A stretch of DNA of 64,000 nucleotides from Heptranchias perlo (lineage: Eukaryota): the NCBI RefSeq assembly GCF_035084215.1, contig NC_090345.1, positions 33,480,001 to 33,544,000 of the forward strand, written 5' to 3'. A program made the translations under genes and the position numbers. Below are positions 43,249-46,601 of this stretch, piece after piece. Within the stretch, counting starts at the first letter, position 1, and each line of letters opens with the position of its first letter. A model generated the notes under the pieces. It did no database searches, was not told the DNA's origin, and saw nothing but the letters and a program-made list of their open reading frames with translations.

Positions 43249-46200
43249 TTTTTTTTTATTCGTTCACGGGATGTGGGCGTCGCTGGCAAGGCCGGCATTT
43301 ATTGCCCATCCCTAATTGCCCTCGAGAAGGTGGTGGTGAGCCGCGTTCTTGAACCGCTGCAGTCCGTGTGGTGACGGTTCTCCCACAGTGCTGTTAGGAA
43401 GGGAGTTCCAGGATTTTGACCCAGCGACAATGAAGGAACGGCGATATATTTCCAAGTCGGGATGGTGTGTGACTTGGAGGGGAACGTGCAGGTGGTGTTG
43501 TTCCCATGCGCCTGCTGCCCTTGACCTTCTAGGTGGTAGAGGTCGCGGGTTTGGGAGGTGCTGTCGAAGAAGCCTTGGCGAGTTGCTGCTGTGCATCCTG
43601 TGGATGGTGCACACTGCAGCCACAGTGCGCCGGTGGTGAAGGGAGTGAATGTTTAGGGTGGTGGATGGGGTGCCAATCAAGCGGGCTGATTTATCTTGGA
43701 TGGTGTCGAGCTTCTTGAGTGTTGTTGGAGTTGCACTCATCCAGGCAAGTGGAGAGTATTCCATCACACTCCTGACTTGTGCCTTGTAGATGGTGGAAAG
43801 GCTTTGGGGAGTCAGGAGGTGAGTCACTCGCCGCAGAATACCCAGCCTCTGACCTGCTCTCGTAGCCACAGTATTTATATGGCTGGTCCAGTTAAGTTTC
43901 TGGTCAATGGTGACCCCGAGGATGTTGATGGTGGGGGATTCGGCGATGGTAATGCCGTTGAATGTCAAGGGGAGGTGGTTAGACTCTCTCTTGTTGGAGA
44001 TGGTCATTGCCTGGCACTTATCTGGCGCGAATGTTACTTGCCACTTATCAGCCCAAGCCTGGATGTTGTCCAGGTCTTGCTGCATGCAGGCTCGGACTGC
44101 TTCATTATCTGAGGGGATGCGAATGGAACTGAACACTGTGCAGTCATCAGCGAACATCCCCATTTCTGACCTTATGATGGAGGGAAGGTCATTGATGAAG
44201 CAGCTGAAGATGGTTGGGCCTAGGACACTGCCCTGAGGAACTCCTGCAGCAATGCCCTGGGGCTGAGATGATTGGCCTCCAACAACCACTACCATCTTCC
44301 TTTGTGCTAGGTATGACTCCAGCCACTGGAGAGTTTTCCCCCTGATTCCCATTGACTTCAATTTTACTAGGGCTCCTTGGTGCCACACTCGGTCAAATGC
44401 TGCCTTGATGTCAAGGGCAGTCACTCTCACCTCACCTCTGGAATTCAGCTCTTTTGTCCATGTTTGGACCAAGGCTGTAATGAGGTCTGGAGCCGAGTGG
44501 TCCTGGCGGAACCCAAACTGAGCATCGGTGAGCAGGTTATTGGTGAGTAAGTGCCGCTTGATAGCACTGTCGACGACACCTTCCATCACTTTGCTGATGA
44601 TTGAGAGTAGACTGATGGGGCGGTAATTGGCCGGATTGGATTTGTCCTGCTTTTTGTGGACAGGACATACCTGGGCAATTTTCCACATTGTCGGGTGGAT
44701 GCCAGTGTTGTAGCTGTACTGGAACAGCTTGGCTAGAGGCGCAGCTAGTTCTGGAGCACAAGTCTTCAGCACTACAGCTGGGATGTTGTCGGGGCCCATA
44801 GCCTTTGCTGTATCCAGTGCACTCAGCCATTTCTTGATATCACGTGGAGTGAATCGAATTGGCCGAAGACTGGCTTCCGTGATGGTGGGGATATCGGGAG
44901 GAGGCTGAGATGGATTATCCACTCGGCACTTCTGGCTGAAGATGGTTGCAAACGCTTCAGCCTTGTCTTTTGCACTCACGTGCTGGACTCCGCCATCATT
45001 GAGAATGGGGATGTTTGCAGAGCCTCCTCCTCCCGTTAGTTGTTTAATTGTCCGCCACCATTCACGACTGGATGTGGCAGGACTGCAGAGCTTTGATCTG
45101 ATCCGTTGGTTGTGGAATCGCTTAGCTCTGTCTATAGCATGTTGCTTCCGCTGTTTAGCATGCATGTAGTCCTGAGTTGTAGCTTCACCAGGTTGGCACC
45201 TCATTTTTCGGTACGCCTGGTGCTGCTCCTGGCATGCTCTTCTACACTCCTCATTGAACCAGGGTTGATCCCCTGGCTTGTTGGTAATGGTAGAGTGAGG
45301 AATATGCTGGGCCATGAGGTTACAGATTGTGCTGGAATAAAATTCTGCTGCTGCTGATGGCCCACAGCGCCTCATGGATGCCCAGTTTTGAGCTGCTAGA
45401 TCTGTTCTGAATCTATCCCATTTAGCACAGTGGTAGTGCCACACAACACGTTGGATGGTGTCCTCAGTGCGAAGACGGGATTTCATCTCCACGAGGACTG
45501 TGCGGTGGTCACTCCTATCAATACTGTCATGGACAGATGCATTTGCGACAGGTAGATTGGTGAGGACGAGGTCAAGTAAGTTTTTCCCTCGTGTTGGTTC
45601 GCTCACCACCTGCCGCAGGCCCAGTCTAGCAGCTATGTCCTTCAGGACTCGGCCAGCTCGGTCAGTGGTGGTGCTACCGAGCCACTCTTGGTGATGGACA
45701 TTGAAGTCCCCCACCCAGAGTACATTTTGTGCCCTTGCTGCCCTCAGTGCTTCCTCCAAGTGGTGTTCAACATGGAGGAGGACTGATTCATCAGCTGAGG
45801 GAGGACGTGTAGGTGGTAATCAGCAGGAGGTTTCCTTGCCCATGTTTGACCTGATGCCATGAGATTTCATGGGGTCCAGAGTCAATGTTGAGGACTCCCA
45901 GGGCCACTCCTGACTGTATATCACTGTACCGCCACCTCTGGTGGGTCTGTCCTGCCGGTGGGACAGGACATACCCAGGGATGGTGATGGAAGAGTCTGGG
46001 ACGTTGGCTGAAAGATATGATTCTGTGAGAATGGCTATGTCAGGCTGTTGCTTGACTAGTCTGTGGGACAGCTCTCCCAATTTTGGCACAAGTCCCCAGA
46101 TGTTAGTAAGGAGGACCTTGCAGGGTCGACTGGGCTTGGTGTTTTGCCGTTGTCGTGTCCGGTGCCTAGTGGTCCGATGCCGGGTGGGCCGTCCGGTTTT

Positions 46201-46601
46201 ATTCTTATTATGATTTTTCGTAGCGAGATTTTACAACTGAGTGGCTTGCTAGGCCATTTCAGAGGGCAATTAAGAATCAACCACATTGCTGTGGGTCTGG
46301 AGTCACATATAGGCCAGACCGGGTAAGGGCGGCAGGCTTCCTTCCCTAAAGGACATTAGTGAACCAGATGGGTTTTTACGACAATCCGGTAGTTTCATGG
46401 CCATCATTACTGATACTAGTATTTTAATTCCAGATTTTTATTTAATTAATTGAATTTAATTAATTAATTGAATTTAAATTCGCCAGCTGCCGTGGCGGGA
46501 TTTGAACTCATGACTCTGGATTTTAGTCCAGGCCTCTGGATCACTAGCCCAGTAACATAACCACTATGCTACCGTACCCGATAACCACTATGCTGCCGTA
46601 C
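43249..46601 (-). mobile_element. LINE-A copy 5, apparently full length: tRNA-like head, APE-RT ORF, 3' tail and poly-A
   Basis: Poly-T at 43249; 815-aa open frame; endonuclease N-terminus (LLTNIWGL..AILTESYL..RQDR..GGG) continues to ~46130; A box at 46561-46571 and B box at 46497-46509. Confidence 0.95.
43312..46130 (-). CDS. LINE-A ORF2: APE-like endonuclease plus reverse transcriptase, with two apparent frameshifts near 45905 and 45808
   Basis: GDFNVHH, LDLVLT and SDH (APE); KAMGPD, NYRPISLLS, QFGFR, LDIKAAFD, QGSVLGP and FADD (RT). Uninterrupted from 45759 to the stop at 43312. Confidence 0.9.

Follow-up and report, generated by a model that had tools for sequence, protein, structure and literature searches.

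Architecture of the headed element

The 64,000-nucleotide (nt) stretch of the Heptranchias perlo genome examined here (contig NC_090345.1 of assembly GCF_035084215.1, forward-strand positions 33,480,001 to 33,544,000; hereafter the window, whose own numbering is used throughout) carries at 46579-43249, on the minus strand, a retroelement of 3.33 kb. It is made up of a tRNA-like head of the type known from short interspersed nuclear elements (SINEs), a non-coding body, an endonuclease-reverse transcriptase (RT) frame like that of a long interspersed nuclear element (LINE), and a 3' tail, all of them on that strand. The head belongs to this LINE family and is not a chance neighbour, and the family is a real SINE-LINE hybrid. 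The hybrid layout had been noticed in a preliminary description of this DNA in which the unit was about 3.35 kb long; the layout stands, but the 5' end of the family is 46579, where 298 contigs of the same organism (set X1) diverge into dissimilar flanks, and the 22 nt just 5' of the head (46601-46580) are a near-repeat of the head's first bases, apparently particular to this copy. A likely explanation of this repeat is a local template jump of the RT during insertion.

The head spans 46486-46579 and contains what, from the motif consensus, we take to be an A box, TAGCATAGTGG, at 46561-46571, starting 7-8 nt after the first base of the element like position 8 of a tRNA, and a B box, GAGTTCAAATCCC, at 46497-46509, with its core GTTCAAATC at 46507-46499. 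This was the sole A/B box pair within the window, and since 0.77 pairs are expected there by chance the pair by itself proves little. At a lowered threshold ARAGORN placed the head at the top of its 10 tRNA-like calls in the window with a score of 95.0, and when the head was shuffled with its dinucleotides kept, none of 1000 shuffles reached 95 and one of 1000 reached 90. The anticodon-like arm is doubled in the head (46552-46536 and 46531-46516); deleting one or the other arm copy gave scores of 93.5 and 90.2 compared to 95.0, and because the single-arm versions scored no higher the Thr(AGT) label of the head is weak. The boxes and the score bear out the tRNA-like head of RNA polymerase III (Pol III) type that had been claimed.

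Behind the head lies a non-coding body of about 250 nt (46233-46485), AT-rich at its start, which is common to the short head+tail forms described below. The preliminary description had given it about 260 nt and had it join the endonuclease frame directly; only the length needed revision. The body-to-coding junction is at about 46232 (46225-46240), where the short forms, too, break most often, and the endonuclease frame is open from 46230, right behind the body. Because the body runs directly into this frame there is no room for an ORF1, as had been proposed. Head, body and tail fold no better than their shuffles (z of -0.19 for the body and -0.21 for the tail), and patterns made from the body DNA had no match in the genome-contig collection and none in the viral-contig collection.

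The coding region begins with a basic leader and the first half of an apurinic/apyrimidinic endonuclease (APE) at 45820-46230, recognised by TNIWG, LTES and QDR..GGG and by a match to Exo_endo_phos (E 0.037). Indels near 45907 and 45808 and a TGA at 45822-45820 interrupt the endonuclease of this copy, and the copy is dead. An open frame of 835 amino acids (aa; 2505 nt) follows at 45819-43315, with the stop at 43314-43312; it holds the second endonuclease half (GDFN, DL, SDH) and then the RT, which lies at about 44652-43906 with a FADD motif and matches Pfam RVT_1 with an E of 2e-38. The coding region also matches Pfam Exo_endo_phos_2 (E 5.6e-12), and no RNase H or zinc-finger family matched the 835-aa frame. 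The order of an APE-type LINE, an APE endonuclease and then an RT, is therefore present with the endonuclease broken, and of the single APE-RT ORF of the preliminary description the RT part is open while the endonuclease part is interrupted. In this copy no in-frame ATG lies ahead of the endonuclease motifs. The ATG at 46257, at the end of the body and in good context, is in frame with the endonuclease here, but two stops follow it, and the off-frame 76-aa peptide from the ATG at 46286 matched no protein. At 46202 this copy has ATA where the whale shark gene models P0242, P0245 and P0249 have Met, in a frame one base off that of the endonuclease. An out-of-frame AUG at about 46202 followed by a frameshift or a re-start is one possible entry to the endonuclease.

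The 3' tail of about 60 nt (43249-43311), which the short forms share, has two AATAAA signals (43303 and 43260) and no T-run terminator. The poly-A end that had been described is present at 43249 but is just 9 A long. No target-site duplication of more than 5 nt was found at any of the six copies in the window.

Recurrence of the junction, copies and relatives

Many copies, and at least two organisms besides this one, have the same junction between body and coding region. Contigs whose letter at 46214, which lies 18 nt beyond the body, differs from that of this copy number at least 128 in X1, and 49 in another organism (X5) and 26 in a further set (X6), whose RNA label is a guess. The best-placed of these contigs have that letter 53 (X1), 34 (X5) and 43 (X6) letters from the contig end and therefore extend over the junction, provided that these letters belong to the element. 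Among 149 proteins aligned to the element, the whale shark gene model P0242 aligns across the junction in one piece (46257-45922), P0246 crosses it in two pieces (46346-46233 joined to 46113-45937), and P0243 starts, by eye, with a body-like peptide. The junction, put at about 46235 in the preliminary description, is thus shared by many contigs of two organisms and by the whale shark models. The summed depth of aligned contigs, which is not the same as copy number, was 32.5 million at the tail and fell smoothly to 2.15 million at the endonuclease start. Over head and body it was 3.2-5.1 million, the body being about twice as deep as the start of the endonuclease, and the flanks had 67-167.

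Five other copies lie in the window. Three are 5'-truncated, at 5131-6339 (plus strand, 98.6% identical), 26607-27873 (minus, 96.1%) and 33183-33761 (minus, 95.3%); the fourth is a 3' fragment at 39548-39858 (plus, 90.6%) and the fifth an internal fragment cut at both ends at 60630-62680 (plus, 94.5%). Together with the depth gradient and the unlike flanks, these copies show the family to be dispersed, 3'-anchored, 5'-truncated and without long terminal repeats (LTRs), as LINEs are. CR1-like LINE pieces are present at 4219-4504, 6363-7496, 27941-30360 and 55200-55869, and the copies at 5131-6339 and 26607-27873 adjoin such pieces, possibly by chance.

The window holds no second head and the head is missing from all five of these copies, which could mean that the head does not belong to the LINE but is a chance neighbour, the product of repeated independent template switches, of the kind that gives the chimeras described for L1 (PMC4494074; this and the other papers cited by PMC number are cited from portions of their text), or the remainder of a SINE into which the LINE inserts at a fixed site. 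We consider this very improbable, as a single junction is found in many contigs of two organisms and in the whale shark models, and none of the six X1 loose ends listed lies near 46232 or marks another 5' end there. Past the A-tail of this copy there is no SINE remainder, the 3' flanks of the other copies are mutually unlike (agreement 0.32-0.33), and the 5'-truncated copies in the window have no body upstream. Fixed-site insertion into a SINE was rejected because no SINE follows the A-tail and no body precedes the truncated copies.

The preliminary description had foreseen short head+tail derivatives, and these were found. Of the 15 joints listed, out of 3761, 10 connect the tail (43314-43431) to the body (46229-46348), and six of these 10 fall at 46229-46233. 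Head-tail joints are present in X1, X5 and X6, and on the coding-side edge of the body they extend over 46229-46261. About 15 nt resembling the start of the leader, as judged by eye, are found in a loose end at 43374 (3 reads) of the raw-read run X21 and, likewise by eye, between the joint ends 43359-46236 in X6. This leader-like remnant hints that the middle was lost from a headed LINE, and does not by itself fix the order of events.

With regard to age, 125,359 of the 694,479 aligned X1 contigs were at least 99% alike and 294,097 were below 95%, which means that young and old subfamilies coexist. The family had been called young from a near-identical copy; the 98.6% identical copy at 5131-6339 agrees with this for one subfamily only, as other copies go down to 90.6% and the family is found in four shark genera. 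Its pieces occur in gene models of Heptranchias perlo (75-89% to this copy), Heterodontus francisci, Cetorhinus maximus and Rhincodon typus, and in X21 160 of 10,085,944 reads were 85-95% alike, which are too few for counts. One such Heptranchias model, P0031, an aldo-keto reductase, has about 260 aa of the headed LINE in its middle, and this is probably an artefact of gene prediction. All named matches of at least 65% were from sharks, two further such matches were unnamed metagenome contigs, and no named non-shark match exceeded about 50%. The tail matched none of 160 related loci, and protein alignment found no relative of the element in the viral-contig collection. Because full-length relatives outside sharks reach only about 40%, nothing points to horizontal transfer, and the exchange with marine invertebrates that had been put forward is not upheld.

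These full-length non-shark relatives at about 40% identity are amphioxus Hypp5830 (P0005), P0002, P0003 and Sycon elements. A rapidly built tree with 61 RT rows, one short row having been left out, put the element together with P0002, P0003 and amphioxus P0005 with a support of 88, within a 31-row clade with a support of 98; this tree holds only unnamed relatives, a careful tree search being unfinished. By its motifs the RT of the element presumably resembles none of RTE, Ingi, Vingi and R2. To the RT of the window's other LINE pieces, which we take from their motifs to be CR1-like, it is 29% identical over 190 aa, and it sits on a separate branch; with this distance and no ORF1, the element falls outside the CR1 clade proper (HER1-like). 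Two members of the 31-row clade, the near relatives L001 and L081, come with 950 and 1091 nt of upstream DNA in which no frame exceeds 55 codons and no head is present, and carry 20-28 TTTT in the frame. Among 52 control upstream regions, these two included, none had an A/B pair or a tRNA-like call. A metagenome scan of about 1 of 64 parts yielded distant LINEs only, and these were used as controls. Because L001 and L081 lack both ORF1 and head, the build without ORF1 seems to predate the head and the head to have been acquired, as far as two relatives on possibly incomplete contigs can tell. The loss of ORF1 was thus probably not caused by the head. The earlier proposal of a LINE that acquired a SINE head agrees with this, with the addition that the ORF1-less build probably came first. 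The loci L081-L160 are animal-type LINEs in bacterial and archaeal bins of GTDB, where 575 of 591 matched stretches encode a relative; the likeliest source is DNA of the hosts within the bins of symbionts, Sedimenticola and Thiodiazotropha among them.

T-runs on the sense strand and the polymerase of the long RNA

Pol III stops at runs of at least four T. Over the 3.3 kb of the sense strand the sole TTTT is at 45339-45342 on the minus strand, and most other copies differ at 45340, where a non-T letter accounts for 3.93 million of the 4.12 million summed depth in X1, and likewise in X5 and X6; none of the five other copies in the window has a TTTT. The scan for terminators suggested in the preliminary description therefore found almost none. 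In the 2505-nt frame, runs of TTT or longer numbered 5 compared to 11.9 in synonymous-codon shuffles (P 0.001; 0 of 2000 in a second shuffle), and the runs of A, C and G matched the codon-shuffle expectation. When this frame was set among 106 LINE frames of at least 600 aa (this element and 105 from the 160 related loci), its TTT-run ratio of 0.42 was the lowest, the next being 0.74, its TTT share of Phe codons of 0.20 was also the lowest, the next being 0.43, and its TTTT density was the second-lowest. In the same window five of six CR1-like frames carry 2-3 TTTT runs.

The explanation towards which we lean, by a modest margin of belief and from the sequence, is that the element is a LINE that captured a SINE head and that its 3.3-kb RNA is likely made by Pol III from the A and B boxes of the head. 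An ORF1-less LINE would have gained the head once, by a switch of the RT template onto a SINE RNA. Pol III would start at about 46579, read through the unit and, as the element has no terminator of its own, stop at the first T-run in the flank; because Pol III would read through the unit, selection would have removed T-runs from the coding strand. Translation of the RNA would then have to do without a normal cap and without any AUG in frame before the endonuclease, and this is the weakest step. The protein of an APE-type LINE nicks DNA and primes copying at the RNA tail, and here the protein would copy the RNA from its tail and would mostly yield 5'-truncated copies such as those seen. The short head+body+tail forms would come about when the coding middle is lost and would depend on this same protein. 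In its full extent, which we put forward tentatively, this would make the element a natural self-sufficient protein-coding gene made by Pol III, which took a SINE promoter, purged terminators, is translated uncapped and AUG-less, spread across sharks and spawns its own SINE.

Several points weigh against Pol III transcription of a captured head. At its default threshold ARAGORN gives no tRNA for the head, and the Rfam tRNA match is under the cut-off (16.7 bits, E 1.6). The 298 contigs that stop at 46579 include short forms, no contig besides this copy was seen to reach from A box as far as RT, and the contig evidence comes from the 40 of 423 differences, 15 of 3761 joints and 21 of 6765 loose ends that were listed. 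Gene models may conceal predicted introns, which weakens P0246. The scarcity of TTTT alone is not significant (1 compared to 2.4, P 0.24-0.25), the signal depends on TTT, which is shorter than the usual terminator, and the control LINEs are mostly AT-rich and from invertebrates; a GC-rich relative with no visible head, L082, also has just one TTTT in its frame. The two AATAAA ahead of the A-tail suit RNA polymerase II (Pol II) equally, and Pol III RNAs are generally unsuited to translation, with Pol II making mRNA from type 3 Pol III promoters (Gao et al., PMC6023835).

Several of these points would fit an alternative in which the head is fixed in the LINE but the long RNA is a product of Pol II, either with the head serving as its promoter or through read-through; within this alternative, RNase P may perhaps trim at the tRNA-like start, and T-runs may perhaps be scarce through base composition or through avoidance of U-rich signals. 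The description of LINEs as units of Pol II, and of SINEs as elements of 100-700 bp owing to the processivity of Pol III (PMC10886601), would also favour it, as would Pol II activity from Pol III promoters, the A-tail with its AATAAA, and the TTTT-poor frame of L082. We nevertheless hold Pol II transcription to be unlikely, since the shortfall against codon shuffles concerns T-runs alone and not A, C or G runs, no other of the 106 frames has so low a TTT ratio, and the copy begins at the tRNA-like first base. L082, for its part, uses Phe codons in the ordinary way (TTT share 0.48), and its 3' untranslated region contains T5-T6 runs. TTTT-poor LINE frames in host-contaminated bacterial bins are L082:34-2892 (1 compared to 4.2), L159:4001-6034 (1 compared to 8.7), L109 (6 compared to 14.5) and L122 (4 compared to 11.8). 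No head was seen in L082, L159 and L122, which could not show one because L159 and L122 look 5'-truncated and L082 begins 39 nt before its ATG.

A further alternative is that the Pol III RNA serves as template only and that copies lying within Pol II transcripts supply the protein in trans; the element would then be a very long SINE with its own helper gene. That an uncapped RNA is a poor mRNA (PMC6023835), that this copy has no in-frame ATG before the endonuclease motifs, and that shark gene models such as P0031 contain spliced-in pieces of the family would all agree with it. An open frame and T-run avoidance along the coding length would, however, be explained most simply if the RNA that is copied is also translated, and we think provision of the protein in trans improbable. 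A Pol III RNA that is both template and message is therefore the form of the captured-head explanation that we prefer.

Other features of the window and comparison with known systems

Elsewhere in the window, two copies (80-90% alike) of a repeat of about 1.3 kb lie at 19917-21185 and 48825-50268, the latter with a frame that has a weak Myb/SANT-like match (E 0.006, below the cut-off) and presumably recalls Harbinger-type transposons. A 152-nt inverted repeat at 919-1070 and 1324-1475, 99% complementary and with 253 nt between its arms, may be a recent inverted duplication or an element like a miniature inverted-repeat transposable element. At 10613-11367 a tandem array in decay, its unit about 60 nt long, has an open frame of repeated Cys/Leu-rich units.

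In the literature searched, which lay outside subscription journals, Repbase and Dfam, there was no description of a tRNA-headed coding LINE in sharks, and because of this scope the family may already be catalogued, as the preliminary description allowed; the portion of PMC13295347 consulted has nothing on heads in LINEs. LINEs are said to be transcribed by Pol II and SINEs, of 100-700 bp, by Pol III (PMC10886601), and SINEs cannot encode a protein (PMC5786205). If the captured-head explanation is true, a LINE that is abundant, bears a SINE head and has a coding strand poor in terminators would cross this divide. It would be a natural system in which to test what length a Pol III RNA can attain, how well it can be translated, and whether a SINE can arise in one step from an already-headed LINE, and repeat libraries may split such a family into a SINE and a headless LINE. 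If Pol II makes the RNA, the element would be a curious but modest promoter capture.

The closest likeness is to the tRNA-headed SINEs with a LINE tail (SINE2), which like the element begin with a tRNA-like head that holds A and B boxes, continue with a non-coding body and have their 3' end in common with a LINE; shark examples are HE1 with its partner HER1, SacSINE1, and the CmiSINEs with an L2-2_CM tail (PMC3747384, PMC5499810). The short forms share the exact build of these elements. The long form also has the head with A and B boxes, though under the default cut-offs of ARAGORN and Rfam, and no internal T4 terminator on its sense strand, as the lone TTTT is not in most copies; at 3.33 kb with an 835-aa frame it is not short and non-coding, as the short forms would be. 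Thus in SINE2 the head is on a short element, whereas here head and body are also on a long protein-coding form. SacSINE1 and HE1 are defined by the Deu and V domains in their bodies, respectively, and the short form may be one of these named shark SINEs. In the MetaSINE superfamily a 66-bp Meta domain lies directly behind the head. The body had no motif match in the consulted supplements of PMC4824008 (file 2) and PMC5786205; none of six body and tail motifs matched in file 2, and the bivalve Meta sequences of the PMC4824008 supplement, compared by eye, did not seem to resemble the body.

In bipartite SINEs (Bov-tA/Bov-B, SINE2-1_ACar/Vingi-2_ACar, AfroSINE/RTE) a short element shares its 5' part and its 3' end with a single-ORF LINE (PMC5786205, PMC4494074), but there the tRNA head is added to the short element only and the LINE is headless, whereas here the LINE itself is headed. 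In the portion of Kojima 2018 (PMC5786205) drawn on, bipartite forms are listed only for RTE, Ingi, Vingi and R2; the same source, the only paper that turned up under this name, mentions RTE-1_DAn and relatives, LINEs of the RTE clade with tRNA-like sequence, which may or may not be a precedent. The wider CR1/L2-group APE LINEs are like the element in their one-frame endonuclease and RT, poly-A end, 5' truncation and lack of a clear target-site duplication, but the sampled relatives of this group with upstream DNA have, unlike the element, no tRNA-like head and the expected number of T-runs. Finally, Cassandra, Helenus and Ajax, terminal-repeat retrotransposons in miniature with Pol III promoters (PMC10886601), are like the element in being non-SINE retroelements that took a small-RNA promoter; they are short non-coding LTR elements, whereas the shark element is 3.3 kb long, non-LTR and coding.

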